A DNA stretch of 64,000 nt, taken from assembly GCA_010015585.1 (NCBI GenBank), contig ML975155.1; one strand, 5' to 3'. Positions 7,419 through 28,260 of the stretch are shown here, in pieces. Both the position numbers and the translations under genes were made by a program. Source of the stretch: Eremomyces bilateralis CBS 781.70. Its lineage: Eukaryota. The notes under the pieces are model-generated. The model saw only the letters and a program-made list of their open reading frames with translations, made no database searches and had not been told where the DNA came from. Positions within the stretch are counted from its first letter, which is position 1. Every line of letters begins with the position of its first letter.

Positions 7419-9220
7419 ATGTCAGACAAGGAAGCTGGCCAGAGGGCAGACCACCTGGAGACCACTACCGGCGACAACGCCAGCGAGATAATCAAGCAGA
7501 CAATTACCGTCGACACGTTGCACAATGATGAGGCAATGAAAGTGCTCGGGAACGCAAGGACCACTGACGCCGTTGACTGGGACGAAGATGAGGAACGGAG
7601 GCTCGTTCGCAAACTGGATTGGAAGTTGATGCCACTGCTCTTTCTGACATTTGGACTCCAATTCTACGACAAAGCATTGTTGTCTTCAGCAGTAAGTATC
7701 AGTGCCAATTATTATGGAAAAACGGTTTAAGATTTCACATACAGGCCCTTTTTGGAATGCGAGAGGACCTCAACCTAACCGGAAATCGATACAACATGTC
7801 TTCTTCCATCTTCTACTTGGGATATATTGCTGGTGCACTACCCACAGCGCTACTAGCACAACGATTCAAAGTCGAACGTGTTGCTGCGGGTCTCATCTTT
7901 GTTTGGGGCGCTTGTTGCACTGCCGCTGTTGGAGCTCGTAACTTCCAAACCTTGTACATCCAACGCTTCTTTCTTGGATTTTTGGAGTCTGGCATCTCTC
8001 CAATCTTCATGGTTATGGTGTCGAGCTTCTACAAGAAGGACGAGCAGGCATGGCGCCAGGGAATATGGTTTTCGGCCAGTAGGCTCTCAGCAATGTCCCA
8101 AGTTCGGAGAGTTCCACTAACAGTTTCTCAGGTGCTTTTATCAGCGTGCCTGGTCCACTTATCAACTATGGACTTGGACACATCACAGGCTCCCTTGCGC
8201 CGTGGAAATATATGTTCATTGTGGCAGGATGCCTCACAATGCTGTGGAGCATTGTGGTGTACTTCTTTATGCCACCAGATCCAATCCGAGCAAAGGGATT
8301 TACAGAAAGGGAGCGGTTCATCCTCGTCGCACGATTGCGATCTAACAACACGGGTGTCCGCAATACTCATTTCAAGGCCGCACAACTTATCGAAACCTTG
8401 GCCGATCCACGATTTTTGCTCACGTTTGCTATGGCATTCTTGATTTTCATTGTCAATGGCCCGGTTTCAACCTTCATGCCACTCATCATTGCCAGCTTTG
8501 GCTATAGTGGTTTCAACAGCCTACTTCTGTCGATACCAGTAGGTGCATTTGGCGGTGTCAGCGCACTTGCGTCAGCCTATTTGGCCCATCGTGTAGCTAG
8601 GCGCGGATGGAGAACATGGGTTATGATCGCGTTCCTAATTCCAGCCATCGTTGGTTCTGTTCTCTTGTGGCAAGTCGAGAGGAAGCATCAAGGGCCATCC
8701 CTCCTAGGTATCATCCTGTTGGGAGGGTTTGCTTCCCCATATGGTATCCTTATGGGTATACAGACTGCCAACACTGCAGGATATACCAAAAGATCGGTCA
8801 CTGCTGCTGGTATCTTTGTGGGTTACTGCCTGGGTAAGTACGATCATGGTCGACATTTCCCACCGCTCCGGCCATCCTCCGCTCCCCAATGCTCGAGATT
8901 ACTATACTCCAGAGACAGCTAACCAACTTTTCAGGCAATTTCACTGGCCCACTTCTATTCAAACCAGAAGATGCTCCTGGATACGCACCAGGGTTCTTGA
9001 GTGTTTTAATAACGAGTATAGCAGCCGGTGTCCTGGCCGTTGGATACAGATATATTTGCGTTTGGGAAAATCACAAACGCGACAAATCCGGTGTTGCGGA
9101 GGGCTTTGAGCATGCTTACGACGATGATGTCACGGACATAAAGGTATGTAGAATGTCTGTGAATCTGTTAGAACTCGATGCTAAGGAATGCAGAATCCAC
9201 AATTCAGATATAATATCTAG
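7419..9220 (+). CDS. MFS transporter, allantoate permease/anion:cation symporter (DAL5-like) family
   Basis: EERRLVRKLDWKLMP, QFYDKA, RFFLGFLES and NTAGYTKR motifs plus NPQFRY C-terminus; introns at about 7692-7744, 8079-8130, 8834-8934 and 9144-9193; TAG at 9218-9220. Confidence 0.9.
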
Positions 9221-9827
9221 CGTGGGAAGTGTGCGCTCGATATACCGAGAACATAGAATTCTACCTATCACCAGCGATGCTTCGCGTAATTTGTCGTTGC
9301 TGGGTTAGTTGCTCCGTGTTGGCCGAAGGGTTCTCCCAAAGGATTCGAGAGTTCTGTATATACGCACTCTATCTCGTTGAAAACGGTTTTGATTGAGCCA
9401 TAAAGCTCCAGACCCCATTCTAAATTGAAAGCGCATCGAGGTAGACGTTCACGGGACAGTGAGGTTTTGCTGTCGCAGGGCCAACTGGAGTGTCATTTCC
9501 GTGAATAGTATGGGTTGCAAGTAACCCGTCAATTAAGTTATCAACGATCGAACAGGTACAGGCGATGGCCTGTCTCGATTACTTGGGCATTATACAGATC
9601 GTTGGTTCTTGGCATCTAGCCTTCAGTGACAACCTCTGTGGTTTGCGCATAGGCTCCGACCATCTGGCATACGACCTAATATTGACATTGATGATTGACT
9701 TAGATTAAGGAACTTGTACTGTATTCTATATGACTAAAACCTAGAAATATCGGGTGAAGAAGTAAATGCGGAGAGCATGGAAAGCCACGAAACTATAACC
9801 GGGTAGCTATATCGATGATTCCAACCA

Positions 9828-11882
9828 TCAGTGCTGGAATGCAGCAAGGTCTTGAACTTTTTCATGCGCTTCCATCCCAACTGTACCGGTGAATGCATTC
9901 TCGGAGCCCGGAAGATTTTGTTGTGCTCGCTCACTATTGAATGTTGCGGACGGCTTTTTTCCAGCGACGATGGAAAGGATCTCCGCCACGTCTATGGTGT
10001 CCGCTGAGGCGCTCTCTGGGCATCGCCAGGCAACATGGTCGTCCGGTCGGACTAAGACTGCATCTCTTTCCCATACCTTTCGTGCAGCTCTTTCCTTTGG
10101 AAGGTGCACCGACTTCAGTGGCACGCCCTGCACAGATGCAACGGTTGAAAACGCTTGAAAATAGGCCGCTTCGGGTGTGAAATCGACCAGGGTGTACTCG
10201 TTTCCGGTGCCGAATAAGTCGAAGATGCTTGTCTGGCCGTCAGAGAGAAAGAGATGTGGAGCGCGGGCACCGGGCCACGTCGAGGGGACATAGTGCTTGT
10301 AGTTCCATGTCGGCTCTGCTTTCGGATCCTCGCTAATAACCGACGGAGAGTTGTTGTACCTGTACCCCAACTCAATACCGTGATCCGTGTTTTCTCCGTT
10401 GTGTGCTGCAACATGCTCAGAAATTTTGGCTCTCAACGCTGCTCCGTCGTCCGAATCTAGAGAGGCCATCTTTGGTACCGCAAGGCACCATTGACGGTAG
10501 GTGTGATGTACCATTTGGTGGACTCCAGAACGCTCGATATTCCTCGCAGCGACAGGTCGTCGTTCGGCTTCATAAGAATCCAGGAGATGCGGCCCTCCGT
10601 GGCCACGTACAACTGCTGCAATTTTCCAGCCAATGTCGAAACTGTCTCCCACCGCCGTGTTCATGCCATAACCGCCGGTTGGAATGTTCTGATGCGCCGC
10701 ATCTCCAGAGATAAATACCCGTCCGCCGCTTGACGTGTAATTATTCGCTAGATAAATGTTTGGCCGCCAGAGGCTGGTGACCAAAACCTCATCGACTTTG
10801 ATCTCAAATGGAGTGAGTTCACCACCAAGAGCGGTATATATGGCAGTGCAAGGGTCAATTTTAGAGACATCAGTGCCCAAGGGGACAGGGTTGTGGACCG
10901 TCCAAGTATCCTTCTCGTCTTGCGAAATGATGACTGAGCCGCTCGCAAAGAAGATATGCCAAAATTGCCCCTGCTGGTGCAAACGCGTCAGATCTCTTGA
11001 CTTGAAATGGATGAGATGCATCGCGGCAGGTCTCAACTCGTAGTTAGCGATGAGAATGAAGAGATAGGTGGATATACTTACACAGGTCCGCCTTCTAACT
11101 TGCTTCCAATGGCGGTTCTGACTTTGCTCCCTGCACCATCGCATCCTATGACATATAAGGACCGAATGATATGCCGGATCCCTTCAGCATCGACCACGAT
11201 GGATTCGACATAGGACTCCTTTTCGATCAAGCTTTCGAATTTCCAACCGAAATAGGTTTCGATGCTGGATGAGATTTGCAATTTAGGCTTCAACCAGGCT
11301 TCAAAGATTGCTTGAGAGCATCTCTGATACGGCTCACGTGGCATGGAACCGTCATTTTGCTCGCGTATCCGTGCCCGCCAGCTGTTCGGCGATGGAAGTT
11401 CCTTTTTGAGTTAATATTGGTACCGAACCCGAACAGGTTTATGCATTAACCTACCCATTTACCCATTATCTTGCCATTGTCAGACAGGCCAGTGCTAAAA
11501 TTGACATTAAACGAGTAATCCTGAGGAACACCTAATGTCGTTTAAGCAGTTGTTCAGGGGGTTCAAAGTGGGTGTGGCCAGGAGAGCAGATCAGCGTTAG
11601 GGGAGAAGATAGACATACCAACGTCGCGAAGCCCTTGGTCTATACCGAGACGTTTCAAGATCTCCATACTCCTGCAGTTCGTAATGTCCATCTTTGGCCA
11701 TTTAGTCGTGTCGAAGTTACGCTCGACCAACATGCATCGGGTGCCATTTGACGCCAATTGCAAAGCGGCAATCAGACCAGCCGGCCCAGCACCGACCACC
11801 AACACCGGTGCCTCATGCTCGACAGTTGCCTATTCGGTCAGTCGAGTCGGTTGCTTGCTTTGGGTTCGGGGGTGCCAACCAT
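9828..11882 (-). CDS. FAD-dependent aromatic-ring monooxygenase (FAD_binding_3, PheA/TfdB-like, with C-terminal thioredoxin-like domain)
   Basis: VVGAGPAG, IGCDGAGS, FISGDAAH..GGYGMNTAVGD, PGARAPH and LVRPDDHVAWR motifs across spliced ORFs. The probable first exon is only the ATG (11882-11880), followed by a ~50-nt intron giving MATVEHEAPVLVVGAG. Confidence 0.88.
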
Positions 11883-12084
11883 ATTAAATTCTTCCTAGAA
11901 TGAGTGTAGTGCGAAGACTACCCGAAGCGTTGTACGGAGGTCAGTGCCTTGATCCGAAAAACAAAAACGGCGAGTTCTATCAGATGGATTCGAGCACCTA
12001 TATCTAGCGTGTCGTGAAGAGCCGGACAACCAGGTATAAACCCTCCAGGTTAGCCCGGCACCGGCGCGGAGTTGGTAGTGGGGA

Positions 12085-12094
12085 CGGTATTCCG
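12085..12094. promoter_or_regulatory. CGGTATTCCG, candidate Zn2Cys6 site upstream of the FAD monooxygenase
   Basis: One mismatch to CGGTATACCG, about 200 bp upstream of ATG 11882. Confidence 0.5.
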
Positions 12095-12477
12095 GGCCAG
12101 CCGCCTTTGTTGGTGCGCGCTCTGCCCTAGAAAGCCTACCTTACCGTCCTCGAACGATATATCTCGTGATACAGCATTCCGTCCAACACTCTTCAGCCCT
12201 CTTCTCTCTGGAGGAATGTCCCGTTTGCCACCATGTCTAGGTCCGCGGCCCCGAAATGAGTCTAGCATATATTGTCACTTCGGATTCATGATTGACTCTA
12301 ACTCAAATTTTGGGCTCCCGACTGACTTATACTGCATGTCACGAGCGTGGTAGTAAACAGAACGTACTTGCTACGCAGATGGATGATACGAGATGATGTC
12401 CAGCAGCGATTGAAGAGGTCAAATATAGAGTATACTAGGTCAAACCAACCAATATTCACAGTTATGTACCACCCACA

Positions 12478-13659
12478 TCACAATTGCGCTGGTTTAGCCA
12501 CATCCAAATTAAGAGGCAACGGAATCGGCTTGCCAGCGTCCTCAATCCGGCCCGTGACAAAGGCTAGAGGGATGTTGGGACCCCAGACATAGAGAGAATC
12601 TGGAGCCGCAGCTTCGCGGCCGAATGGTGTATCTTCATTGACGAGATCTCCATCGGAATAGTGCTCAACCACATTGCCAGATCCATCAAACCTATAGATA
12701 CGCAGTCAGCAACAAACCCATGTCAATATCAACTTGATTAAGCTTTGGTTGTTCTTTACCAGTAATCGAAGATTTGGCTACCCAGAACGTGTCTACCAAT
12801 GCCCCAGCAATTGGTCCAGCCGTTCCTTTGTAGGTGATCGTGCCCCAACCTCTGCGTGTCAAAGTCGTTGACTTCGTAGCTTGAATGGTGTACGTGAGCA
12901 TGTGGCGCTTGCTTGCTAGCGGCGAGGAAAAAGCTCTGTCTGAATTAGAATGATCAAATCCCAGCAGTCAATCGTATGTACAACCGCACGTACATGATGA
13001 TCGGCGTACTGACTTCCAAGGTCAATGTGCATGAAGACAGTATCATCCTTGTTTGAGACTGGGTCGAACACAGCATCGGTGGGTTTAAGGTTGATGGTAG
13101 TGGTATACCATGAAAAGGATTCCTCGAATTTGTTCTGTGGTACCACATATCCGTAATGGCCCAGCTTGTGGACAGGGCTGGCACCGGGTAGGAACCGTCG
13201 GACAGCGCCCTTCCGCGGTTTTTCAACCGCTGTGTTGGAAGCATGGCCACTGTCCTTGCGCTCCAAGGCCCCGACATCGACATCCGGGGAGCGGAGGGTT
13301 TGTCCGTAGACAAACCCGACAGTATTGCCGTTGGGATCTGGCACGGTGACCACTCGGCCACCACCAGGGGCATCCAGGTTCTGAATAGACGAAGCGCCCG
13401 GGAGAGATGCTGCCTTTTCCAGCTCAGCTTCGCTATCCACAACCCAGTAACCTCCGGCGAAGTGCCTCTTTTCATCCGGAGACTGCTCTGCTAGATGGAC
13501 GAAAGGCTGTGCGCCATACCCGCGTAGAAATGTGCGGCCATCCCGTTCATCTTCTGTCACCAAGCCAAAGTCTCCAAAGAATTTGACTGCTTTGGCTAGG
13601 TCAGGGTGCTTGTAGTGGACGTGCGACAAGCGCACAACGCGGATCTTGTCAGAAACCAT
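12478..13659 (-). CDS. VOC/glyoxalase-fold extradiol-type ring-cleavage dioxygenase (trihydroxytoluene-oxygenase-like)
   Basis: Two-domain VOC protein: RLSHVHY..PDL...FFGDFGL N-terminus, then KLGHYG, HVHHSSYEV, WGIGRHVLGSQIFDYW and VEHYSDGD (His/His/Glu metal triad). Introns near 12938-12993 and 12692-12758. Confidence 0.85.
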
Positions 13660-13828
13660 GTCAAATTCGTCGTCAATGAGTGCTCTGATGATTGTTGAAC
13701 TAGACGGCTAGACTTTGAATTTGAATTTGATTTGATTTGATTTAGAGAGATTATATTCCCTTTGACCAAACCGGTTTCACAACACAGTTGGGAACGTGCT
13801 TCTGGGCCCGATGTTGGGCGGCATACGA

Positions 13829-13838
13829 CGGTATACCG
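13829..13838. promoter_or_regulatory. CGGTATACCG palindrome in the 290-bp divergent dioxygenase/FAH promoter
   Basis: Perfect CGG-N4-CCG palindrome between ATG 13659(-) and ATG 13949(+). Confidence 0.6.
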
Positions 13839-13948
13839 CGATCCGGTGTGGCTGCCGGTGTGCAGCTGTTAAAGTAGAAACGGTTTCCAGAACCATTGTT
13901 CTCGACGACGGCAATATTTTGCAAGGGCTTCGTGCATACAACGCAAAT

Positions 13949-14930
13949 ATGGCATTCGAGAAGCTTGTTCGATACCAGGTGGAAGGCTCGATCTATTATG
14001 GGGATCTGATAGAGACAGCTGAAACCGGCTTCAAAGTGCGCAGATTGAGCGGCGGTCTTGGTGGCTTTCAGCCACAAGGGGATATTGATACGGTGAACAA
14101 GGTAAGTTTCCTCAGGCCACACTACACACAGCCGGTAATTCTGACGTTCTTATCTCCGTAGCTCCTTTGCCCCTTGGAGAAGACGCCGATTATACTATGC
14201 ATCGGACTCAACTACAAGAAACATGCAACTGAAGCTTCAGTAAGCCAAATGCTCATGATGTTTTCCTCATTGCTTTGGTGCCGAGGTTTTGTCTGGCAAC
14301 GTAATCGCTGACGGCGGGCTTGTTCAGCTTGAAATTCCAGATTATCCCGTGGTCTTCACCAAGCCCTCGGATGCCCTTGCGGGACCCGGCGAAGCGATTC
14401 CTATCAGCCCAGGCGCTCAATCCATGCTGGACTATGAAGGGGAATTGGTCGTGGTAATTAGCAAGGACTGTAAGAATCTTCCTGAAGACGTTGATCTCAG
14501 CGAATATGTCCTTGGATACACGGCCGGAAACGATGTCTCAGCACGAAACTACCAACTTCCCAAAGCCGGCGGTGGTCAATATTCATATGCGAAGTCGTTC
14601 GACAAGTTTGCACCCATCGGTCCTTATATTGTCAGTTCGAGCGTCATCAAGGATCCGCAAAGCCTGAAATATGTCACGAGGGTGAACGGGAAGACGGTGC
14701 AGGAGACGGACACTGATGACATGATATGGTCGGTGAAGGCGATTCTGCGACACTTGACTCGGGGTACCACCGTGCGCGCAGGAACCATTATCATGACGGG
14801 CACACCAGCTGGCGTCGGCTTTTTCAGGAACCTCTTCCTACAGGACGGTGATATGGTCGAGGTCGAGATCGAAGGAGTGATGAAGCTGTCCAACATTATC
14901 AAGTACGAGGATCATGCTTCCAAAATGTAG
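13949..14930 (+). CDS. Fumarylacetoacetate hydrolase family protein (short, FAHD1/FAHD2-like acylpyruvate hydrolase type)
   Basis: CIGLNYKKHA, VFTKPSDAL, DYEGEL, GNDVSAR, AKSFDKFAPIGP and TGTPAGVG motifs; introns at about 14102-14161 and 14200-14327; about 265 aa. Confidence 0.9.
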
Positions 14931-15319
14931 TCGCCCAGGCAAAATAACTAATAGTCTGATAATCAAAGGCTTCTCTTCTGCTAGTATAAGGCTTCGGTTC
15001 GACTGTTAAGCTGTAGAGCCCGAGTACATCCCCTTAGGGCGGGTTGAACGCATGGGGATGGTGGTGAAGATGGTGATATGGTGCTGTAGGGGATCGAGCT
15101 GGTGGGAAAATTTCCCGTTGTGGTAATTACAGCGTGGCTACATCCGATTAAGTTCTCCCTAACTCGCACCCAGGGCTTTCTCTCGGCCCGGTTTCAACTC
15201 TAAACCCTCTATATCGACGAGTTCGTCGGGTCTTTGGAGAAAGAAATGTCGAACCCTCCCCGTATCCCAAACCTATCTGTACTTTCGTTCCGCTTCCCTT
15301 CGCTCCTCGTTAAATTTGG

Positions 15320-15442
15320 TGTCTGTCAGTACACAAATTTGCGGAGCCGGGTGAGTAGCTGGCGATTGGTTGGTGTGGCACAATTAACGGGGATTTGTGA
15401 AGAGATCTGCGTACCTTGTGACTGAGACTGAGACTGATCCTG
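15320..15442 (+). repeat. Degenerate direct repeat, copy 1 (copy 2 at 16793-16924)
   Basis: Shares gccgggtg..agctggcgattggttggtg..cacaatt..gatctg.gtac....tgagactgat.ctg with 16793-16924. Confidence 0.75.
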
Positions 15443-16262: not shown

Positions 16263-16769
16263 ATGGCACACGAATCGATCCGCCAGCAGCTTATCGGCGC
16301 GTGGGAGCTCATCGAATACGTCGCGTATCTCCCCGACGATCCTTCTAATAAGGTCCACCCTATGGGCCCCAATGCAACGGGCATCATCATGTACACACCG
16401 GACGGGTACATGTCGGCGCAACTCCTGAAGCCGAACCAGGCGGCATTTGACACCGCCCAAGGGACCGCGAACGAATGGGCCCAGGTCGGCAAGAAATTCA
16501 TCGGTTATACGGGCCAGTTTTACTTGGACGAGCGCGGGGACGAAAAGGGTCGGCCAATCCTTATACATCATATGCGCAATGCGAGTCTGCCGTCCTTAAG
16601 AGGGGATAAGCAGAGGCGGCTCGTAGGATTTAGCAACGAAAGCGACGGCAAGTACCTGGTCCTGGGCGTAGAGGGGACAGTGGCTATCGGTACGGAGCGA
16701 AGGGTGCTTCAGTTGCGGTGGAGGAGACTGCCTTACAACGATAAGACGACGCCGCAGGAGAATCTTTGA
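16263..16769 (+). CDS. Lipocalin-like domain protein (Lipocalin_5 type), single exon
   Basis: 168 aa; LIGAWEL...HPMGPNATGIIMYTPDGYMSAQL...FIGYTG.F and terminal LRWRR pattern typical of this beta-barrel family. Confidence 0.75.
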   Translation: MAHESIRQQLIGAWELIEYVAYLPDDPSNKVHPMGPNATGIIMYTPDGYMSAQLLKPNQAAFDTAQGTANEWAQVGKKFIGYTGQFYLDERGDEKGRPILIHHMRNASLPSLRGDKQRRLVGFSNESDGKYLVLGVEGTVAIGTERRVLQLRWRRLPYNDKTTPQENL

Positions 16770-16792
16770 GAAGAGATAGTGCGTTGTAATAA

Positions 16793-16924: not shown

Positions 16925-17089
16925 TGGCAAGTTATCTCAGTTGGGACTCAGACGGGATCTGCAAGATAGTTGTGGCGGTGCAGGCATCTTTCAGATGCCG
17001 TCTGAGGGCCTTTTGCAAGCATTTTGGTGGGCGCCCCGCGGAGGACAAAAATAGCAGGACTCACATTGGGCTTGGCGCCACCACCCGTA

Positions 17090-17840
17090 CAGATTTCTAT
17101 ATAAAAACAGATATATTCACAATAACGCTGTCAATCCACGTCAAAATGGAAGGTGACGTTATTAAGTCTTATACAAACAGTCTATAGGTAAAAAACGCGG
17201 CGGTTAGCCCGCCATTCCGCCCCCATAACCAATCAGTTGACCACCAGCCTCGATCACCTTTCGAAGTCGATCAGGCATAGAAAGTACCCGTTTATTAATC
17301 CATTCCTGTTTAAGCTCTCCCCAGGCCTCGATCGCTAATTCACGAGTTTCTTCGGGATTGAAATGGCGATATTTCCGTACGTATTGCTTCGTCGGTTGCC
17401 AACAGTCCTCGATGATCGCAAGATCCGGCGATCCTGCGCAATTAAAGTACGAATGTACGCCATTTTGCTCTTTCCATTGTTGTACGGCATTGCCTTTTTT
17501 CCTTGACCGCGGCGGTGCGTGGCCTGAGTCTTGATCCTCCTCTAAAACGAAGAAATCTCCACGGTCGACCCATTCCTGAACTTCCGTCTGGAGTATCTCC
17601 TTGAGATAAACGTCCTGCGTCTTCTTCCCGTTTTTATTCGTCGGTATCTCGTAAAAGGTAAGGAGGGACTTGAAGTCGTAGCCCACCGCGGCCCATGCGT
17701 GGACTTTGAGCTTCTCTGCGTCGTCCCGTTCCTCCACGCGTTGGATACACTTGGGACAGTACCGTTCGCCGCGTTTCCGGATAATAACGAGCTTCCCTTG
17801 AGGCCCCATCCCGAAATGGACTTCGTCGCTATATCTGATA
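17090..17840 (-). mobile_element. 5'-truncated Tc1/mariner element carrying only the DDE catalytic half of the transposase
   Basis: SDEVHF...WAAVGYDFKS...EEDQDSGH...SPDLAIIEDCW...SMPDRLRKVIEAGG is a Tc1-type DDE domain. No HTH N-terminus. Possible single end TA|CAG at 17088-17092; no matching second TIR found. Confidence 0.8.
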
Positions 17841-18269
17841 CAATCGCGAGAGCAATAAGGCGCCGCATACAACCCAAGGAGGAACACCCACCAACACGGC
17901 GAAAGGGGACCAGAATGCCAGAAACAGCGCAGCAAGTGCCAACCGGCACGATATCACGCAAAGCACCCTAGAAATTGCCAAGGTCCAAGGCATCCCACGG
18001 CGCCAGCACGGAATAACGTGAAGGTTTTCCCCTACTGGGGTTTTTTATCCTCCATAGTTGCCGTACAGCCTGCATAGACCAATAGGGACCGAATCAGGCG
18101 TTAAATAGAATTATTAATAATAATAATATCTTTTCTATGGAACCTACTCCGTACATTTGGTGCAATTTCTGGTATTGTCGTAGTCTGGATATCAACATCC
18201 CCAGATGAACTACAGCTGTGATTGGGTTGTCACCCATGTATGATAGGTATTGGCAGCATTGGCAGTGTC

Positions 18270-18670: not shown

Positions 18671-20968
18671 ATGGGCTCGGAACCGATTTGGGTACCTAGC
18701 AATACGCGACACACTGGCATCCACACCTTTCGGCTGTACGTCAATCGGACATATTCCTTGAATCTTCAGACATACGATGACCTACACAAATGGTCTGTCA
18801 TGAACATCCCGGACTTTGCCGAAGCTCTTTTCGTTTTTGCCGGCATCCACGCTTCGACCCCGTACCTTCGACCAGCCGATGGAGTCGACACCATGTATCC
18901 GCCGCCACGGTGGTTTCCCGGTGCCCGGTTGAATTACACCGAGAATATCCTTAAGCCTGGACTCGGGTTGCGACCGAACGGTATTGCCGTTACTGTCTGT
19001 GACGAAGACCCGAGTACGAGTGTCGATATCACGTTCCTCGAGCTCGAGAGACAGACAGCACTCTGGGCTACGGCGTTGCGGAACATGGGTGTTGGAGTGG
19101 GAGACAGAGTTGCTAGTAGGTTTCAGCCATTTTTTACTTTGCTTCTTTTCACCTCCCCCCGCCTCACATTTTGGGTTGAGATTTCGAACATCTGTGCTTG
19201 GAAAGATACTGAGCATCGATAGCTGTGCTACCCAACAAACTCGACTGCCTCCTTGTTCTCCTGGCTGCTGGCTCTATCGGGGCGATTTTCTCGTCGACCT
19301 CACCTGACATGGGTGCCACTGGTATTATCGAGAGGTACAAACAGGTTCGACCTAAGGTTTTGGTTTGTGATACCGTCGTCACCTATGCAGGCAAGAAAAT
19401 AGATTTGCGGAAACGACTATTTGAAGCAAACAAAAAGCTATCTGAGCTGGTCCCCGAGCTTCAACATACCTTGGTGGCCAATGGTCCCATCTTTGAGGGC
19501 CAAAACGTGAAATCGGCCAACTCTGTGCTTGCGGCCACCCGTGCAACAAGTCCCCGATACGAGCAGCTTCCCTTCGACCACCCGATCTACATCCTGTACA
19601 CCTCCGGCACGACGGGGACTCCAAAATGCATCACGCATGCAGCAGGTCGAGCACTCCTGCAACAAAAGAAAGAACTCATCCTCACCGGGGACGTCAAACC
19701 CAACTCGACTTATTATCAATACACGACGACTGGTTGGATGATGTGGAATTGGGTCGTGGCAGTATTGAGCGTGGGTGGGCGAATCATTCTTTATGATGGC
19801 AGTCCGCTTCATCCCACGCCGAGTGCGCAAATCGAGTTGATCAAGAAACAGGAGTGAGTGTGCCACGATCGAAGACCCTCGGTCGCTGTCGAGCCCAGCG
19901 GTTGTGCAGCGCCGGCCTTGGTACTGACCTCTTTGCCATAGTGTCACCCACTGGGGAACAAGTCCAAAATTCCTCGCCGCCCTGAGACGCTCTGGGCTTC
20001 CCAAGGACATGGACCTTCCGAGTCTCTGTCATGTCGGTTCTGCAGGATCGCCCCTCAGCGCCGAGCTCCATCGATGGTTCGCAGACACGTTTCCGGCTGG
20101 AGTAGGACTAACCAGCGGTTCGGGGGGTACTGACCTGGTCGGAGGGAGTGAGTATATGACTCATCTATCTGATGTGCAGCTAGACTTCTGACCATTTGAA
20201 GTTGTCTCCGGCAGTCCGATAACCAATATCTACCCTGGTGAGATCTCCGTGCCAAACCTAGGCATGAAGGTCGAAATCTGGGACAGTTCGGGGAGGAATA
20301 TTGAAGACTCCGGCGAGAAAGGTGATCTCGTTATTACGAAGCCCTTTTTCAGCATGCCAATAGGGTTCTGGGGTGAGAATGGCAAGGCCAAGTACCGTGC
20401 AGCTTATTTTGAGCAGTATCCCGGCGTATGGTACCACGGGGACTTCATCAGGAAAATCCCCGGGACCAATGGTTATGAGATTCTGGGCAGAAGCGACGGC
20501 GTCCTTAACCCTGGAGGTATGTGTCCCACCCGGCAAATGATCGAGAACACTTCACTGACAAATCCAGGCGTGCGGTTTGGCAGCGCAGAAATTTATGGCA
20601 TCTTGGACAAGTTTGAAGAACTCCAAGATTTCCTCTGCGTTGCACAGAAGCTTCCACCCACCTTTCAGGATGAGCAAGTCTTGCTTTTCATTATGATGGC
20701 CGCTGGCAAGCGGCTTGACGACAGTCTTTTGTCCAGGATCAAGCAGGAAATATCGCGATCACTCAGTCTGAGACACGTTCCGGGTGGGATACACGAGGTG
20801 CACGGTATTCCCTATACCGTGAACGGAAAGCGTATTGAGAATCTAGTGAGGGATATTGTGGCCGGGAAATCCGTCGGTGAAGCGCGAACCGCGATAAATC
20901 CAGAGTGTCTGAAGGAATATGAGAACTTCAGGCTCGGCGCCGCGGAAGCAGCGCAAAGCAAGCTCTGA
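18671..20968 (+). CDS. Acetoacetyl-CoA synthetase (acetoacetate-CoA ligase)
   Basis: WFPGARLNYTENIL, FSSTSPDMG, ILYTSGTTGTPKCI, YQYTTTGWMMWNW, SGGTD, W.HGDF and GRSDGVLNPGGVRFGSAEIY motifs characteristic of AACS; four GT-AG introns restore an intact frame. Confidence 0.92.
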
Positions 20969-21266: not shown

Positions 21267-23535
21267 TTATAACTGAAAGTCTGCAGAAAGCACGGGAGTT
21301 CTACGTTCATGCAAAGGCTGCTCGTATGCTGGCGCCTCAGGTGGTCCCGGAAGCTGGCTATACTTGTCCTCTAAGGAAGGGGGAATCTCGTTCATGTTAT
21401 CAATATCAGCAGGCCAGTCGATTTGTCCAAAAAAATTGTATCCCTCGAGCACTGTTTCAGCGTAGTCGAGACCATGTACTTGGGTGCCGGGCTGGGACAC
21501 GTTCGAGGGACGATTGCTGCCAGCCCCCTTGCGCCTCGGAAAGAACACAGAGAAGCGCTTGACAAGCGCATGGTCTGCCGTGCCGCCGCCCTGGAGGCAC
21601 ATCATCTGGAGTACAGCTTGCAAGGATTTAGCATCCATCGATGCATCAATCAGGACGAAGCCACGTACCTAATGTTTCAGATGCAAGTTTCCACTTCCCG
21701 GCAAAATGGGCGAAGATCAGTTCTGCCAATCGCCCTATAGCCTCAAAATCTCTCGCCACTTTTGCCAGGGCTGTTGAGATATCCATTGGAAAATGGATAG
21801 GTAGCATCATGCAAAGAAAAAAAGGATGCGCTGCCACAAGATAGTCTGTTGGCCATCGCGTAATGATTCGCGTAAACGACTTTGCATGTGCACTGCTGGC
21901 ATGTTCGACAACTTGGCTTGAGCAGGAAAGAGAGCTCGGCCCTTCATCGTTGTTAAGTGGCATCATCTCAATCATTGCGTATGCCTGGTTCAGGAGCAGA
22001 TGGGTCCCCATGATCCAATTAGAGGTCCCAAATGATTGTTGGTCGAATGTCGGCAGGTTGGTCGAAATGTTGAACTCGGGAGGCAGTGAGAGTCTGAAGC
22101 AGTTCACACTAACTTCTAAGACATATTTCACTTCCGTGAGGTCTTGCTTTTTTTTATTCAGTTCTTGATAGACCAGTGAAAGAAGGTGGTTGGCCACTAA
22201 GAACCATGCGCGAGGATCCTGATTCTCTGCAGCCTGGAGGGATTTCCAACACTGATGATGAGATGTCATAAGCAGGGCAGATTGACACATATTTCCGGAG
22301 AACCAGGCGTTGTCCGATACTGGCAGGTTGACAGAAAACTGGTGACGGTCCACTGCGAATGGTCTTTGGCTAACCATGGAGCCGAACGTGTCCAGCTCCC
22401 ATATCAGCCACCAGGCGCGACGCATCTCCTCCTTCTGTGTTGAGTCCAGTTGCGGATCTTCAGAATCGGGGTCGTCGATTTCGAACAGTTCCATTTCGTA
22501 GGCCAGCCGGACGCAAACGCCAGTGAGGATCCAGCTTTGAGCATTCAGCTCCGAGGTGTAGTCGTTGAAAGCGAGCAAGATGCAACCTTGCACATACTGT
22601 AGTGAAGATATTTTGGTGGATCGTGCCTCGGCATAGGCATGGCGTGCTGCCTTCATAAACGGTTCATCTCGGTCTCGCGGATCGATGAGGTCGAAATGAG
22701 GTGAATTAGAGTGGCGCGCAGACAGGGCAAAAAGACTGTAGAGCAATAGTTTCATGTCGACAGGCAACTTAGACAGAGCATCGGGCTCGTGACTGAGATG
22801 CTGAGAACAGTACGCCGTGAAGCGAGGCCGGTGGAGAAGTGGCAGCCATGGCTGGATATGCAGAAAGAATACTTCCACCAAGTGCATTGCCACATCACAG
22901 GACACGCGTGCTTCGGTGGTCAACTTGGTTGGGGCCTGTGCTTGCTTGTTGGTCGAAGCGGGGACATCCGATCCTGCCACATTCTCGCCAGTGCCATTGT
23001 CCAACTGGCTCACGCTCACTGATGAGCCGTCCAGGCTCGCGAGATCATGGGCGAAAACGGTTTCCAAGTCTGATTGCGATGGCGAGTCGGCCAAAACAAC
23101 GTCTGGGGCAACTGCGTCACCGGCCGTAGGAGATAGATTCGAAACGAGACCATGATGGCGAGCGTCACCAGATCTAGGAGACAGATTCGACACGAGATCA
23201 TGATCACGGATTTCACCCGGACTCGGCGACGGATTTGGGACAAGGCCATGTTCGCGAAGCAGGTAGGTAGCGCGGGGAGACTTGAGGACGCTCAGCAGCC
23301 GATCCATGTTGCCTTCCACCTCACGCAGGCCGGTTTTCCGTCTCTTGTTGCTGGTAGATGGAGGCTTTCGCTTGATGGGAAAGTAACATTTGCTGCCAGT
23401 CCGACGACACAGTCCACAGGCCGGCCGTGACATATCGCATTTCGTTTTCTTCCGGTGGCATTCCTGACAGGCGCGTGGAATCGTCTGCCATGGAAATTGA
23501 GAACGGCTCCATTGGACTTCGTCGGTCTGTGCCAT
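21267..23535 (-). CDS. Zn2Cys6 transcription factor with fungal-specific TF (MHR) domain
   Basis: ACQECHRKKTKCDMSRPACGLCRRTGSKC binuclear cluster, FF.HIQPWLPLLH and EEMRRAWW motifs; first ATG at 23535; one intron near 21617-21668. Confidence 0.92.
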
Positions 23536-23828
23536 GGTCAAGGAGGCGGACCATGTGCGATATGGTAGCGTCTGGATCCGGACAATGCGATAGCATTCAT
23601 GATTATTCGGAAGCTTCGGCTCAACTTCATGTCCCCAGTGGCAGGATGAGGGTGGTGAAGTTCTTCCACTTGTGTGGGGAAGCTGACCCGCAAGGATCTT
23701 CCCGCCCGAGGTTCTGGCTCACAGATGGGGCGGGGCAATTGAGCCATCTGTGGCGTTTGGAAGTGGTCAGGAGCAGGGATGGAAATTACATGTAAAACCT
23801 GCCTCTGTATAACAACTAACAAGGTATA

Positions 23829-25380
23829 CTCGCACCCCACGCCCATTACAAGTAATAGGCGCTATCCACCTCAATGTACACGAATCTGAGGTAAGGTCTA
23901 CCATTCTGTATACATATATGAAAACACGCTATTTTTGCGGATTTAGCATAGAAACACGTAGGAAATAGGCTAATCTTCCCCTATATGAAATTACATCAAT
24001 ATTAAATAGATTGGCGGGCTGATGAGCCGCTCTTCGCCTCTGACGATCACCACCACCAATACGACATCACCAACTTTGAACTCCTCTACCACCACGAATA
24101 AAGAAGATATTAGGAAGGTCAATCCGTAGATACACGCTATGAAGAGGCAGCTTTCGCCTAAGGGGCGTTTTCCCGTGCCTTGCGTGCCATTTCCGCCCTT
24201 TTTCGGTCTCGGACTTATTCCCGTTCCTCCTTCTGTTTTTCCTTTTCCAGACGCTCTGTCTCCCTATTGTCGACGATATGACGACATTCCTCAATTGATA
24301 ATAGACCACCGCTGAAAACGTGTCGTCGTGACACGTTATCATTGAGCTTACGCATGCGTTTTGCGAGGTCTGATTCGTGAAGGTCTAGCATGGCCTTTTT
24401 CGCCTCCAAGGCCTGTGTCTGCGCGCCGTGATTGAGCTGATTGATGCGGGCGACCAGGTCGGCTGGAACGTCCGCCACCTTCAATATCTCCTCCTGTATA
24501 TGATCCACCAATCGCTGTGTCCCTCGTACTGTTTTTGGCGTGGTGAAAATGATATCGGTTGGAGGTGGAGGCGTAACCGGACGGGCAGTTTCGGTTTCGT
24601 CGGGGATCTGATTCTCTGTGCAGACCTCATGAAATGCGGAAAACCAGTCGGTATTATCCTGTACGTTCTCTGCGTTCCTTCGCTTCAGATCTCGCATCCG
24701 CTGTTTCTTTGCCAATATATCTGGATGACGGTCGAGGAATCGCTTCACCCAGCGGTTTCCAAGAGGCGGTGGCTGACCAGGACTAGTATGATATTCGCTC
24801 ATCGCCTAGGTCGCTGCACCCTATAATTATTCCTTGGTTGGAGACATCCGGAGCTTCTCTAATCGTCTCACGTACTGGACCAGGAAGACCTCTATAGGCG
24901 CGGGGATCCGGAGATTCGTTCGTGGGCGTTGACCCCGCCCGGGGATGCCCATGAGGCGATTCGTGACGCGGCGCTATTCAACGCGGTGGGCTCGAGCTGC
25001 CTCTGCGGCTGATGGAAAAAGTCCTTCTGCATATTAATCTGCAGCCAATTTGATGCGATTCTCTATCTTTTCTTTCTCAGATTTCATGATGGGGTGAGGG
25101 ATAGGCATGATTCAATTTTGGGGGTGGGTTTTGGGGTGGAAGAGTGGTTAGATTGGGCGGCATATCAAACCACGATGGAAATGAATTAGAATTTCAAACA
25201 ATATCTAGCAGCTTAGATAATTGGATTAAATTCACTAATCCACCAAAATAAGTACGGAATACTGCAATGGTGCGAAGATAACACGCTTCGACGCGTCCTG
25301 GGACTATTTCATGTACATTGAGGTGGCTTGTCCGTTGAGGTGGATAGCGCCCATTACTTGTAATGGGCGTGGGGCGCGAG
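23829..25380 (-). mobile_element. Non-autonomous pogo/Fot1-like DNA transposon with TIRs and TA target duplication; transposase internally deleted and mutated
   Basis: TIRs CTCGCACCCCACGCCCATTACAAGTAAT... (23829) and its inverse ending at 25380, with TA at 23827-28 and 25381-82. Transposase remnant from ATG 25087 (HTH/CENP-B-like, LGNRWVKRFLDRHP) has 5 premature TAA/TAG stops and is fused directly to the C-terminal TPPPP..TPKT region, so the DDE domain is missing. Confidence 0.9.
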
Positions 25381-25961
25381 TAGCTGAGATTTGTCCCCCA
25401 CGTTTTTGAGATTTGCCCCCCCTTTGAGATCTGTCGTCGCAGGCCAAGGCATCAGCTCTTGGAGCCTGAGGCTACAAACTGCATTAATAATCTTGGCATG
25501 AGTCTCGTATATGCAAGGCGAGGCGAAGGCGGCATTCGATAGCTAGGGTAGAAAGCTGTATTGGTTACTACTAAACCAAGCAACATGTATTAGATACCGG
25601 TCAAAATATTTTCCGTATTCCAGAAAGGATCCTGATCTGGCCTAAGATATAAAATCAAAGACCGCAGATTTCTGCGGTTGTTGATGCTAGATCGACCGGA
25701 ATAGATGCAGGGCCGGGGGACCAGGCATTGACATAGAACACACAACTTGCACAATACAACTCTGCTGCTTGTCATAAAACATTATCCGTCCTTCGAACCA
25801 TTAATTAGCACATCCCAGTGCGACAACCATCTCCAACTTCCCCAGATTCTGGGGAAGCTGGGTGCCCGGCAGCCAGAAAATACCATGTCCTGAACCAATC
25901 AAAGCTATCACGGCGGCGAGGGAAAGTGCCGTGCCCACCTCGTCCGAGATGGTATGATCGC

Positions 25962-26247
25962 CTACTACGGTATCAGGCATAATAATTGTTAGTGCAACGC
26001 CATTGCAGGGTTTTAACGCTAACCATTTATAACCAATTCCATTCGAATACGATTACTAATATACCTTTACCATCGCGTATGTCCTCCTTGCGCATTGATA
26101 ACGTCCTGAGTAGTGAAATAATTACTGAACTAGCGGTAATATAATGTGATTACTAAATTAATTTAGTATATTTTATTGTAAATGGTTAGCGCCAAAACCC
26201 CTGCAATGGCGCTGCACTAACAATTATTATGCCTGATACCGTAGTAG
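25962..26247. mobile_element. MITE-like element with ~70-bp terminal inverted repeats and AT-rich core
   Basis: ctactacggtatcaggcataataattgttagtgca... at 25962 is inverted at ...tgcactaacaattattatgcctgataccgtagtag ending 26247; TA dinucleotides at both ends; non-coding. Confidence 0.85.
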
Positions 26248-26334: not shown

Positions 26335-26622
26335 TCTTCCGCCGTGACAGACAGTACTCTCAATGGTCTCCTCTTCATATTGGACGGTACAGAACTGTTC
26401 TGTCCTTGTCTCTCTGATCTCGAGAGCATCGCCCCTACGTATTGCTCTGGTTCCGGCTCTATTCTCCACCTCCGCGGTGAACCACGGAGTCCGTGGCTCG
26501 GGCAGTTTAACGAATAGCAAGCCAAGTAACGGACTAGCATGATAATCTTGATATATGAATAAATCGCATCCAACCCTCAGGGTATTCATGAGAATCATAA
26601 ACTTTGCCGAAGAACTTTCGAG

Positions 26623-28260
26623 ATGGGTGAACTCAATACCTCAAAGCCTTTTCAGGTCATCATTGTTGGCGCCGGTATTGGTGGTCTTGTTTGCGCTATT
26701 TCCTCCGCTCGTGAAGGACTCGCTGTGAAAGTGTTGGAAAGAGCTCCAGAGATTTTGCCCGTATGTTTGTTTCAACCATTCTCTTAAAAGGTTTGCCTTT
26801 AAATTTCGCAGATTGGTGCTGGGATTCAGATTCCACCTAATGCCGCTCGGATTCTTGCCTCTCTTGACCTCTTACCCAAAATTCGGGAGACGGCGATTGA
26901 AGTGCAGAAGCTAAATTTTAGGCGGTACGAAGATGGTCGACTACTTGCTTCGCGCAAATCACGTTCACACGCTCAATGGTTGTGAGTGATATGAGCTCAC
27001 CAGAATTCTATACAGTATTTTTAACCTGGGCCAGTGTGATTCATCGAGCAGATTATCATCAAGTCCTTTTGGACGAGGCCAAACGACTTGGCGTCGAGAT
27101 TCAGCTGAATGCTTCAGTAAAAGACATCAGCTTCGAGGACGGTGTCGTATACCTGGAGGATGACACAACTCTCAAAGGCGATGTCGTAATTGGTGGCGAC
27201 GGTAGTTATAATGATTTGCTCACAAACCATCCATGGTCAAATGGTCGCTGACAGACCGCGTTTTCACCAGGTCTTTGGTCGACAACACGAGAAAAGCTGC
27301 TTGGAAAGGATTCGCAGCCTTTTCAGACGGGGGACTTGGCATACCGGGGGACATTTACTTTGGAGCAATTGGAAGCCCTCAATGATCCACGAGTCGAAGA
27401 GCTGTGCAAAGAACCCGCCGTAACTGTCTGGTTTGGTCCAGAGAAGCACTGCGTTTTCTACCCGGTTCGCGGCGGTACCCAATTCAACCTGGTATTACTC
27501 CGACCTGATAACCTCCCTCAAGGAACAAGAACTGTGAAAGGGGATATTGAAGAAATGAGGTACACCTTCCATGGATGGGATAGCGTGTAAGTGCATTTTC
27601 GATTAGAAGATCTAACCTGGAATAGTCTGAAGTACTGTAGGAGCTAACAAATCAATAGCTTGACGAAGATTATCAGCTGCATTCCTTCGGTACTCAGGTG
27701 GAAACTGTGTCACCACGACGAACTCGATACATGGACCAAGGTGAGGCCAAACAAATCTTTTGGAATCGCAGCAGTTGCTTATTCCGCGGCAGGGTCGCGT
27801 TGCCCTTCTCGGTGACGCATGCCATCCGACTCTACCTTACCAGGCTCAAGGCGCGGCGATGGCCGTTGAAGATGGTGCAATTCTTGGCAGGTTCTTGGGG
27901 AAACTATTTCTGCTACTCCAAAATGGAAGCATTTCACCAGCATCGGAGGCCGAAAGCATTTCGCGGGTGTTAAAGCTGTATGAGACAATTCGAAAGCATC
28001 GCACCACTCAGAATGTTCAGGGCGCCATCAGCAACAGGCATTTTTACCATCTGCCAGATGGGCCGGAACAGCAAAAGCGAGACGAAGAGATGGCAAAGCA
28101 TTCGTTCACTACCGAAACTTCCGAGTACAAGTTTTTGGACATGAAGTACAATGCTGATCTTCTAGAGGTTCCTGTGCTCAGGGAAGCCGGGAAAGCTTTT
28201 GACAGTTGGTGGTCAAGTCACACGGAAGATAAAGGTGAAGGAAATCGATCCCTGATGTAA
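26623..28260 (+). CDS. FAD-dependent monooxygenase, salicylate-hydroxylase (NahG/ShyA)-like
   Basis: VIIVGAGIGGL, IGAGIQIPPNAARIL, IHRAD, VIGGDGLWS, GDLAYR and LLGDACHPTLPYQAQGAAMAVEDG motifs; five introns (first at 26761-26811). Confidence 0.88.

Follow-up and report, generated by a model that had tools for sequence, protein, structure and literature searches.

Fungal breakdown of aromatic compounds is taught as almost wholly intradiol, and a locus of the dothideomycete Eremomyces bilateralis CBS 781.70, a fungus of soil and dung, raises the question of whether moulds also open phenolic rings by an extradiol route. The locus lies at positions 7419 to 28260 of a 64,000-nucleotide stretch of contig ML975155.1 (assembly GCA_010015585.1), hereafter called the window. 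It holds eight adjacent genes, which encode an MFS transporter, a TfdB/MhqA-type flavin monooxygenase (the hydroxylase), a VOC-type dioxygenase, a short FAH-family protein, a lipocalin-like protein, an acetoacetyl-CoA synthetase (AACS), a Zn2Cys6 transcription factor and a second flavin monooxygenase. An earlier annotation made from the letters alone (the original prediction) had taken these genes for a pathway that consumes methyl-substituted phenolics and ends in pyruvate and acetoacetate. Our analysis indicates that they very probably form an aromatic catabolic cluster with extradiol cleavage, and we lean towards the narrower reading that the cluster is a self-contained catabolic module for methyl-substituted phenolics of polyketide type or from plants.

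The presence of the eight adjacent genes was confirmed by their Pfam families and by open spliced models (Table 1). The Pfam scan covered 202 open reading frames (ORFs) of the window, namely 102 stop-to-stop ORFs of the 6- to 30-kb region and 100 ORFs from the remainder, and every family named in the original prediction was recovered among the 102. The seven spliced models built from the coordinates were all open, and all of their introns were of the GT..AG type. Public E. bilateralis proteins of equal length exist for the VOC protein (P0001, 351 residues), the hydroxylase (P0121, 604 residues) and AACS (P0241, 665 residues; public name 'acetoacetyl-CoA synthetase-like protein'). All three are 100% identical to the largest exons in the window and are encoded on one 1.30-Mb contig.

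Transcript support came from the sole run that matched the stretch, X1, whose tag 'RNA?' is a guess and to which no condition or level is attached. Joins across 15 introns were seen in the X1 contigs, which skipped exactly the predicted introns of the VOC (two), FAH (two), AACS (four), transcription factor (one) and second monooxygenase (five) genes. They also contained an extra FAH intron at 14903-14968, near the stop codon, which alters the last residues only. A single contig ran from the VOC gene through the FAH gene to the lipocalin-like gene, and another spanned the convergent AACS and transcription factor genes. The contig over the hydroxylase gene covered 9755-11031; the first intron of this gene, preceded by an exon that consists of the ATG alone, starts with a weak donor site (GTTGGC), and exon 1 is tentative. 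We read the X1 contigs as spliced transcripts and the cluster genes as transcribed. The contigs speak for the existence of spliced forms only, and nothing on expression level or induction follows from them.

Table 1. Genes and other features of the cluster region, with positions in the window
Feature	Strand	Gene model or extent	Pfam match
MFS transporter, anion:cation symporter type, 514 residues	+	exons 7419-7691, 7745-8078, 8132-8833, 8935-9143, 9194-9220; open model, four GT..AG introns (predicted)	MFS_1, 7592-8919 (two ORF pieces)
Phenol-hydroxylase/TfdB/MhqA-type flavin monooxygenase (hydroxylase), 604 residues	-	9828..11882; exons 11880-11882 (ATG only, unconfirmed), 11619-11829, 11455-11531, 11082-11401, 9828-11031	FAD_binding_3 + Rng_hyd_C, 9831-11829
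Two-domain VOC-type extradiol dioxygenase, 351 residues	-	exons 12994-13659, 12760-12935, 12478-12691	Glyoxalase, 12919-13707
Shared promoter region of the divergent VOC and FAH genes, 289 bp (from gene models)	.	13660..13948	
Short FAH-family protein, 277 residues	+	exons 13949-14101, 14162-14239, 14328-14930	FAA_hydrolase, 14259-14927 (203.1 bits; gathering score 23.9)
Lipocalin_5-domain (lipocalin-like) protein, 168 residues	+	16263..16769, single exon	Lipocalin_5 (PF13924), 16245-16766 (91 bits)
Transposase remnant, DDE_3-like, between lipocalin-like gene and AACS	-	17207..17953	E 7.5e-5, 23.1 bits, below Pfam cut-off 28.6
Acetoacetyl-CoA synthetase (AACS), 665 residues	+	exons 18671-19115, 19223-19853, 19942-20147, 20202-20516, 20568-20968	ACAS_N/AMP-binding, 18632-20188
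Zn2Cys6 transcription factor	-	21270..23535; ATG at 23535, intron 21617-21668, 3' end approximate (~21270)	Zn_clus + Fungal_trans, 21649-23718
Transposon relic, 1.56 kb, 54-nt inverted repeats 93% complementary, between transcription factor and second monooxygenase	.	23827..25382	
Second flavin monooxygenase, 446 residues	+	exons 26623-26760, 26812-26981, 27035-27201, 27271-27586, 27659-27740, 27793-28260	FAD_binding_3, 27745-28257

The VOC protein, taken for a member of the extradiol dioxygenase family in the original prediction, bears this out in both its two-domain fold and its invariant positions of the His/His/Glu type. Its AlphaFold model (pLDDT 71.8, pTM 0.77) has the full tandem VOC fold of catechol 2,3-dioxygenase, BphC and homoprotocatechuate 2,3-dioxygenase. 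Foldseek comparison of the model with 3b59, C23O, AphC, BphC and HPCD gave E-values from 5e-19 to 1e-16 and TM scores of 0.62-0.77 over ~320 columns. The motifs HH, HH..EV, GRH and E align with those of solved VOC dioxygenases, and H168, H221/H222, H238/H239, H271, Y280 and E290 are invariant in 20 fungal VOC sequences. According to these alignments, the C-terminal domain carries the His/His/Glu metal triad together with second-sphere His and Tyr residues; the role of each conserved residue is presumably the one that XylE numbering gives it. Membership in the catechol 2,3-dioxygenase (TIGR03211), HpaD (TIGR02295) and BphC (TIGR03213) families was rejected, with scores of 44.9 bits (cut-off 320.2), 41.1 bits (321.4) and 31.4 bits (366.45), respectively, and the first two, far below their cut-offs, are the nearest named NCBIfam families. 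Taken with the fold model, the protein appears to be a divergent but complete type I extradiol dioxygenase.

In an unrooted tree, 19 fungal VOC sequences formed one split against 13 bacterial sequences with support of 100/100, and three of the bacterial rows sat on long branches. Because the tree has no root, a direction of transfer cannot be claimed. Two proteins of one metagenome-assembled genome named 'Deltaproteobacteria bacterium' (P0024 and P0234, CL912_33010 and CL912_33050, on a 64.5-kb contig) showed 59% and 56% identity to the fungal VOC and hydroxylase exons, respectively. The VOC homologues of bacteria reach only 31-37% identity, and this contig is probably fungal.

The FAH protein belongs to superfamily PF01557, with a score far above the gathering score (Table 1). 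Its nearest NCBIfam entries, both below cut-off, are the HpaG C-terminal family and 2,4-didehydro-3-deoxy-L-rhamnonate hydrolase. Its PDB neighbours are HpcE (the best match), L-2,4-diketo-3-deoxyrhamnonate hydrolase, FAHD1 acylpyruvase and fumarylpyruvate hydrolase, and the neighbours in both databases comprise hydrolases as well as isomerase/decarboxylases. An NY..H..E stretch, a candidate feature for telling hydrolases from isomerase/decarboxylases, is present in exon 2 and in P0256, a Fusarium protein discussed below. We consider it probable that the FAH protein acts as a hydrolase, giving pyruvate and a 3-oxoacid that the cluster ligase activates. A classical catechol or homoprotocatechuate meta pathway, in which the VOC protein would cleave a catechol and the FAH protein would be an isomerase, decarboxylase or hydratase of the HpcE/MhpD type, would suit the HpcE and HpaG matches of the FAH protein and the catechol 2,3-dioxygenase and HpaD matches of the VOC protein. 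However, all matches to these named families lie far below the cut-offs, and neither the window nor the compact VOC-FAH-ligase operons of bacteria described below contain the other enzymes required, namely a semialdehyde dehydrogenase or alpha/beta hydrolase, a hydratase and an aldolase. We regard such a pathway as very unlikely here.

The five AACS exons are colinear on TIGR01217 (profile positions 4-143, 145-354, 358-424, 430-527 and 531-647 of 652), and their scores of 83.7, 213.2, 38.5, 112.9 and 106.2 bits amount to 554.5 bits as a simple sum over separately scored exons, against a cut-off of 520.9. At the profile level, the cluster ligase is an acetoacetate-CoA ligase.

The hydroxylase combines FAD_binding_3 with a C-terminal thioredoxin-like Rng_hyd_C domain in its 604 residues, the make-up of group A monooxygenases of the phenol-hydroxylase/TfdB/MhqA type. 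Its best NCBIfam match is subfamily PRK06126, and its PDB neighbours are RebC, 2,4-dichlorophenol 6-monooxygenase and HbpA. Over its full length it aligns with MhqA of Burkholderia sp. YI23 (27% identity, E 6.5e-47). The second monooxygenase had been labelled as salicylate hydroxylase (NahG)-like, and this label was not upheld. The top PDB matches of two of its exons were 8gsm ('4-hydroxybenzoate decarboxylase'; E 3e-21 and 1.6e-20) and 8x38 ('Decarboxylative Vanillate 1-Hydroxylase'; 5e-19 and 1e-11), whereas NahG salicylate hydroxylase (6bz5) gave only 5e-5. By these matches the enzyme appears far closer to decarboxylative 4-hydroxybenzoate/vanillate 1-hydroxylases than to NahG. This likeness fits an acid substrate and the anion-type MFS transporter. 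The transporter falls in the anion:cation symporter group, and its best NCBIfam match, below cut-off, is TIGR00893, the D-galactonate transporter subfamily. The lipocalin-like protein had no match in NCBIfam or the PDB.

Conservation of the core was investigated by scanning metagenome contigs with the VOC alignment, which gave 80 loci; in 40 of them the VOC gene had flanks of 1.5 kb or more to either side. Among these 40 well-flanked loci, the distance from the VOC gene to an FAH homologue was no more than 1.5 kb in 31 and no more than 5 kb in 33, and 6 had none. Over all 80 loci, FAH matches were found in 52 and hydroxylase-like matches in 22. The VOC-FAH pairing occurs both in fungal loci (recognized by introns or Fungal_trans) and in bacterial loci. 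The VOC gene adjoins the FAH gene in all five annotated fungal loci (L002, L003, L007, L023 and L030), with flavin monooxygenases in L002, L003, L023 and L030 and a fungal transcription factor in L003 and L007; the entry hydroxylases differ among these loci. In addition, hydroxylase and VOC orthologues carry consecutive locus tags in six named fungi, Exophiala spinifera, Rhinocladiella mackenziei, Fonsecaea erecta, Cladophialophora carrionii, Plenodomus lindquistii and Aspergillus nanangensis. Co-location is kept across species, as in a fungal metabolic gene cluster.

In bacteria, the order VOC-FAH-acyl-CoA synthetase (subfamily PRK07529) was observed in 6 of 12 annotated loci. Beside these six operons are genes for an MhpA-like flavin hydroxylase, TetR regulators, an old-yellow-enzyme protein and outer-membrane channels for hydrophobic compounds (FadL/TodX, DUF1302/DUF1329 and OmpW). 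Three further loci (L011, L012 and L066) have the FAH gene next to the VOC gene without a PRK07529 ligase. In L044 the ORFs picked had no Pfam match for VOC or FAH, but the tblastn matches lie 43 bases apart, and L068 and L072 have no adjacent FAH gene. When plasmids were searched with P0001 by tblastn, 76 records were obtained, and a Burkholderia stagnalis plasmid showed the same VOC-FAH-acyl-CoA synthetase order. On plasmid byi_3p of Burkholderia sp. YI23, the order is 3-ketoacyl-CoA thiolase, long-chain-fatty-acid-CoA ligase, MhqA, VOC, three small genes and an FAH-family gene; the window's hydroxylase, VOC and FAH proteins are 27%, 31% and 40% identical to those of this mhq cluster, respectively. 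As a separate observation, the VOC gene of L072 (2342-8434; bacterial, GC content 0.35) follows genes for an AMP-binding enzyme, an acyl carrier protein-type III polyketide synthase fusion and a flavin monooxygenase; by its gene content L072 looks like a biosynthetic setting for an alkylresorcinol-like product.

The variety of these loci bears on a broader explanation, that the cluster serves hydroxyquinols in general, unsubstituted or with other side chains, and that the methyl case is one of several. Resorcinol or 2,4-dihydroxybenzoate would then be converted through hydroxyquinol to pyruvate and malonate semialdehyde, and longer 5-alkylresorcinols to 3-oxo fatty acids. Such breadth is favoured by the variable entry hydroxylases of the fungal loci, several of which yielded no AACS, by the PRK07529-type ligase and hydrophobic-compound channels of the bacterial versions, and by the VOC gene of L072 beside a type III polyketide synthase. 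Against it, the window's own ligase is a profile-level acetoacetate-CoA ligase, which points to a methyl ketone end, and no aldehyde dehydrogenase for malonate semialdehyde was found in the cluster by Pfam. On balance this explanation is rather improbable for E. bilateralis, and we retain the module for methyl-substituted phenolics.

The link between AACS and the module, proposed in the original prediction, was strengthened by recurrent co-location in fungi and by one FAH-AACS gene model. The closest AACS relatives showed 50-76% identity over exon 2, and several of them lie beside VOC or hydroxylase genes. In Aspergillus nanangensis, the AACS relative FE257_005838 is four and five tags from the hydroxylase FE257_005834 and the VOC gene FE257_005833. 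In Fusarium mundagurra (37477 bases) and Cadophora sp. (30916 bases), an AACS relative and a VOC or hydroxylase relative came from contigs of the same size, as they did in two further assemblies (24796 and 13512 bases). Metagenome locus L001, with the closest VOC and FAH sequences (54% each), has next to FAH an exon whose best family is acetoacetate-CoA ligase. Finally, P0256 of Fusarium nematophilum (968 residues) joins an FAH part (62% identity to that of the window) and then an AACS part (54%) in one gene model. This may be a genuine fusion or two merged neighbours; either way the FAH and AACS sequences are adjacent and co-oriented.

These findings bear on an alternative that keeps the same ring chemistry and ends as in Pseudomonas, with the FAH protein cutting 2,4,6-trioxoheptanoate and then acetylpyruvate, so that two acetate and pyruvate result, and AACS serving another purpose or activating a different small acid. 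A scheme of this kind is drawn, with reference to the orcinol pathway and with a tentatively assigned FAH-family gene, in the available part of Sato et al. (PMC8571283), and hydrolysis of acetylpyruvate by FAHD1-type enzymes is described in the available part of PMC3196145. However, AACS relatives recur beside the module and FAH and AACS are joined in one gene model. An acyl-CoA synthetase also directly follows FAH in the bacterial operons, and the YI23 thiolase would be without a role if only acetate and pyruvate were formed. We judge the acetate route unlikely and prefer cleavage to pyruvate and acetoacetate.

The scheme that follows builds on what was observed, namely which genes are present, how they are spliced, their conserved co-location and their homology to the mhq cluster; in it we infer every chemical step, the substrate and the regulation. 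The anion-type MFS transporter would bring in an aromatic acid. Two enzymes, the monooxygenase that resembles decarboxylative 1-hydroxylases and the hydroxylase of MhqA/TfdB type, would then act either in series, converting a 4-hydroxy-methylbenzoate through methylhydroquinone to the triol, or as parallel entries for orsellinate and orcinol. Both options would lead to a methyl-hydroxyquinol, most simply 2,3,5-trihydroxytoluene. This triol could arise from orsellinate by decarboxylative 1-hydroxylation (the 4-hydroxyl group being para to the carboxyl group), from orcinol by ortho-hydroxylation, or from methylhydroquinone by MhqA-type hydroxylation, with methylhydroquinone supplied from 4-hydroxy-methylbenzoate by the decarboxylative hydroxylase. 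When 2,3,5-trihydroxytoluene undergoes extradiol cleavage beside the carbon that bears the methyl group, the product is 2,4,6-trioxoheptanoate, and we propose that the VOC protein would carry out this step. FAH-type enzymes split 2,4-diketo acids into pyruvate and an acid; the short FAH protein would hydrolyse 2,4,6-trioxoheptanoate, an acylpyruvate, to pyruvate and acetoacetate, and AACS would convert acetoacetate to acetoacetyl-CoA. The Zn2Cys6 factor would control the cluster genes.

The chance that the whole chain runs through 2,3,5-trihydroxytoluene is about even. The 4-hydroxy-methylbenzoate series could use every cluster enzyme in line and fits the anion transporter, whereas the orsellinate/orcinol option uses the hydroxylases in parallel; we make no choice between them, and orsellinate or orcinol is a doubtful candidate for the natural feed. 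The methyl-phenolic meta-cleavage logic of the original prediction, as a set of predicted chemical steps, drew partial, comparative support from architecture, conservation and the analogy to Mhq. We also put forward, tentatively and at somewhat less than even odds, that a widespread route runs resorcinol-type polyketide synthesis in reverse. The VOC clade and its dedicated FAH partner would open 6-alkyl-hydroxyquinols, and the side chain would leave as a 3-oxoacid, be converted to its CoA ester and undergo thiolysis. The ligase would be AACS in fungi (joined to FAH in one gene model) and a PRK07529-type enzyme in bacteria, where a thiolase is present, and the VOC-FAH pairing would be older than the split between fungi and bacteria or spread by transfer.

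Several points weigh against the module as read here. The fungal VOC protein shares only 31-37% identity with the VOC proteins of the bacterial clusters, falls far short of the catechol 2,3-dioxygenase cut-off (44.9 bits, with 320 required), and belongs to a clade without an assayed enzyme. FAH homology alone does not separate a hydrolase from an isomerase/decarboxylase, HpcE being the best PDB match. No thiolase was found by Pfam among the 202 window ORFs, and X1 speaks for spliced forms only. AACS was not found in the available DNA of fungal loci L002, L003, L007, L023 and L030, and acetoacetate may therefore not be the general product; contigs of the same size are an indirect sign of AACS co-location. 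In the scheme of Sato et al., as far as it is available (PMC8571283), trioxoheptanoate is cut to acetate and acetylpyruvate and then to acetate and pyruvate, marked '?', and AACS is not needed. The conserved co-clustering that had been predicted holds for the VOC-FAH pair (31 of 40 loci), for hydroxylase and VOC in six fungi and for recurrent AACS co-location. It does not extend to the second monooxygenase, MFS and lipocalin-like genes, for which no counterpart was found in the 80 loci by tblastn at E 1e-4, apart from two weak bacterial matches of the second monooxygenase in L066 and L071. Cluster membership of these three genes is weaker because of this lack of counterparts and because two transposon relics separate genes, AACS included, from the core.

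The layout reflects these relics. The MFS, hydroxylase, VOC, FAH and lipocalin-like genes make up a compact core, and AACS with the transcription factor gene, and the second monooxygenase gene, are each split from it by mobile-element relics (Table 1). Over the transposase remnant, the X1 contigs (16684-17997) differ from the window at no fewer than 10 positions at 17348-17736 and at least 11 over 16968-17736; these mismatches suggest transcripts of other element copies elsewhere in the genome. The 1.56-kb relic takes up the greater part of the space separating the transcription factor gene from the second monooxygenase gene. It holds a 196-residue ORF (24215-24805, minus strand) with no Pfam match, and an X1 contig covers 24296-25178 of it. 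Just upstream of the second monooxygenase gene is a 286-bp element (25962-26247) resembling a miniature inverted-repeat transposable element, with 53-nt inverted repeats that are 96% complementary and lie 180 nt apart. The lipocalin-like gene is flanked by the two copies of a 43-nt direct repeat (86% identity) at 15338-15380 and 16813-16855 (spacing 1475 bases); the pair may be the trace of an insertion or duplication by which this gene entered the cluster.

The transposon relics show that the region has been rearranged, and this would agree with a chance neighbourhood. It might also be asked whether they are tailoring or self-protection genes of secondary metabolism, in which both types of flavin monooxygenase also occur in polyketide clusters and from which the PDB neighbours RebC, RdmE, TropB and AfoD come. 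However, the VOC-FAH pair with hydroxylase and ligase neighbours recurs across kingdoms, and no polyketide synthase (PKS), nonribosomal peptide synthetase (NRPS) or terpene synthase domain was found by Pfam among the 202 ORFs, so that both explanations together are highly improbable. The statement that the window is free of PKS and NRPS genes was borne out in the ORFs scanned, and this result supports the catabolic rather than biosynthetic nature assigned to the module.

A candidate regulatory element was found in the promoters. The palindrome CGGTATACCG is present at 7195-7204, upstream of the MFS gene, and at 13829-13838, in the VOC/FAH promoter region, with related copies at 12085 (hydroxylase promoter), 18270 (AACS promoter) and 9238 (not in a promoter); four of the five copies are upstream of the MFS, hydroxylase, VOC/FAH and AACS genes. 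For the pattern CGGTWWACCG, chosen post hoc after inspection, there are 3 matches in 64 kb against 0.17 expected and, with one mismatch allowed, 5 against 0.9 expected, all at 7.2-18.3 kb; none of 100 shuffles reached five. The presence of so rare a palindrome in the cluster promoters speaks for the module as read here. The pattern is absent from all 83 related loci, a further point against the module, and the palindrome is species-specific at best. As a lead only, CGGTATACCG is a candidate binding site of the cluster's Zn2Cys6 factor.

The flanks of the cluster differ in content. From 30.8 kb rightward, only housekeeping genes were found (SNF2 helicase, glutathione synthase, HIT, GET4, a histidine-biosynthesis gene, Ste12-like, RAI1 and Erf4). 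In the last bin (27853-28500), the summed X1 contig depth reaches 1974, ~10 times the values of about 160-220 in the adjoining bins; an X1 contig enters from the right at 28453, and Pfam gave no family for the ORFs at 28.6-30.2 kb. The region from this bin rightward may be a transcribed unit of its own. At the left edge of the window is an iron-type alcohol dehydrogenase gene (370-1623, minus strand). This family includes the maleylacetate reductases of hydroxyquinol pathways, and such a role was considered for the gene; its best NCBIfam matches are of the lactaldehyde reductase type and below cut-off. Between this gene and the cluster, at 1751-5837, are GC-rich long ORFs (for example 4521-5837, plus strand, 439 residues) with no Pfam family.

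The original prediction had stated that no such fungal cluster was genetically characterized, and our literature search turned up none. Neither fungal genetic or enzymatic work on the catabolism of orcinol, orsellinate or trihydroxytoluene nor a characterized fungal VOC-type extradiol cluster was found, and the sole related item was a Scedosporium genome annotation that mentions 'trihydroxytoluene oxygenase'. A review of Aspergillus niger (PMC12388069) does not mention orcinol, orsellinate, resorcinol or acetoacetate. According to the available part of a 2025 study (PMC12420386), the fungal VOC-type extradiol clades are without reference enzymes, and the characterized fungal extradiol enzymes for lignin-related compounds are of the homogentisate type only. 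The cluster offers a concrete, testable gene set, consisting of a VOC dioxygenase, its FAH partner, two entry hydroxylases, an acetoacetate ligase, a transporter and a regulator. If our reading is correct, it would explain how moulds consume polyketides of the orsellinate and orcinol type, fragments of lichen depsides, methylhydroquinones or the alkylresorcinols of cereals. A function would also be assigned to many bacterial VOC-FAH-ligase operons, and the question mark on the FAH gene in the Mhq pathway would be settled. The reverse-polyketide route, if true, would supply the genes so far missing for the turnover of orcinol, orsellinate and alkylresorcinols in fungi, and no earlier catabolic pathway of the VOC-type extradiol kind would be known in this kingdom.

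Among known systems, the chemistry proposed here resembles that of the orcinol pathway of Pseudomonas putida, which Chapman and Ribbons are said to have described in 1976 as leading from orcinol through 2,3,5-trihydroxytoluene and extradiol cleavage to 2,4,6-trioxoheptanoate and on to pyruvate. To our knowledge this pathway is known from biochemistry only, with no cloned genes, and it differs in that hydrolysis gives acetate and acetylpyruvate, not acetoacetate. In the 2,4-dinitrotoluene pathway of Burkholderia, reportedly described by Johnson et al. in 2000, a flavin monooxygenase, a trihydroxytoluene extradiol oxygenase and an FAH-family isomerase/hydrolase (DntB, DntD and DntG) act in series and pyruvate is released; likened by description, it differs in its substrate, 2,4,5-trihydroxytoluene, and in its other product, methylmalonate semialdehyde. 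The sorgoleone srg cluster was dropped as a relative, the gene families in the available part of that report being different (10.1101/2023.05.26.542311). A plasmid of the lichen-derived Polymorphobacter sp. PAMC 29334 (L082) carries within 19 kb two VOC genes together with FAH, AMP-binding, MhpA-like hydroxylase, two CocE/NonD hydrolase, amidohydrolase-family, GntR and MFS genes, and by this content it is a candidate bacterial locus for the breakdown of lichen depsides or orsellinate.

The nearest fungal parallel is the gallate/1,2,3,5-tetrahydroxybenzene cluster of Martins et al. (2023, PMC10832562), which in the available part of that paper encodes a flavin monooxygenase, a ring-opening enzyme and an FAH-like protein, together with an MFS transporter, a transcription factor and a small protein whose role is not known. 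Compared by description, the two clusters share a fungal catabolic make-up of monooxygenase, ring-opening enzyme, FAH-like protein, MFS transporter and transcription factor; in the gallate cluster, as described there, the ring-opening enzyme is a DUF3500 protein and not a VOC protein, and there is no AACS.

The nearest studied system, judged by gene content and homology, is the bacterial Mhq cluster of the Burkholderia/Caballeronia fenitrothion degraders (YI23 byi_3p and SFA1 plasmid 2). The likeness to a bacterial flavin monooxygenase/trihydroxytoluene oxygenase/hydrolase series noted in the original prediction finds a counterpart in this bacterial cluster, which has three homologues and a published route through trihydroxytoluene. 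In the available part of Sato et al. (2021, PMC8571283), this route leads from 2-methylhydroquinone through trihydroxytoluene to 2,4,6-trioxoheptanoate, and mhqA, mhqB, a hydrolase gene and the FAH-family gene are induced 100- to 340-fold on fenitrothion. There, transcripts per million rose from 67 to 14623 for mhqA, from 37 to 6784 for mhqB and from 40 to 13617 for the FAH-family gene, and the last is drawn with '?' as a trioxoheptanoate or acetylpyruvate hydrolase (PMC8571283). Because methylhydroquinone has no carboxyl group, we infer that the Mhq ligase and thiolase can have a role only once the ring is open, with a 3-oxoacid as substrate. Both systems have a homologous flavin hydroxylase that ends in a thioredoxin-like domain, a VOC protein of two domains, a short FAH protein and an acid-CoA ligase within the cluster, and the fungal route proposed here would pass through the same trihydroxytoluene and 2,4,6-trioxoheptanoate. 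By contrast, the Mhq genes are bacterial and lie on plasmids, the ligase among them gave no match to AACS and comes from a different AMP-binding family, a thiolase is included, and there is no decarboxylative hydroxylase, Zn2Cys6 factor or anion-type MFS transporter; sequence identity is low, and the fungal VOC proteins form their own split. This kind of system is known from bacteria, and what is new in fungi is the VOC clade of their own, the enzyme resembling decarboxylative hydroxylases and the dedicated AACS.

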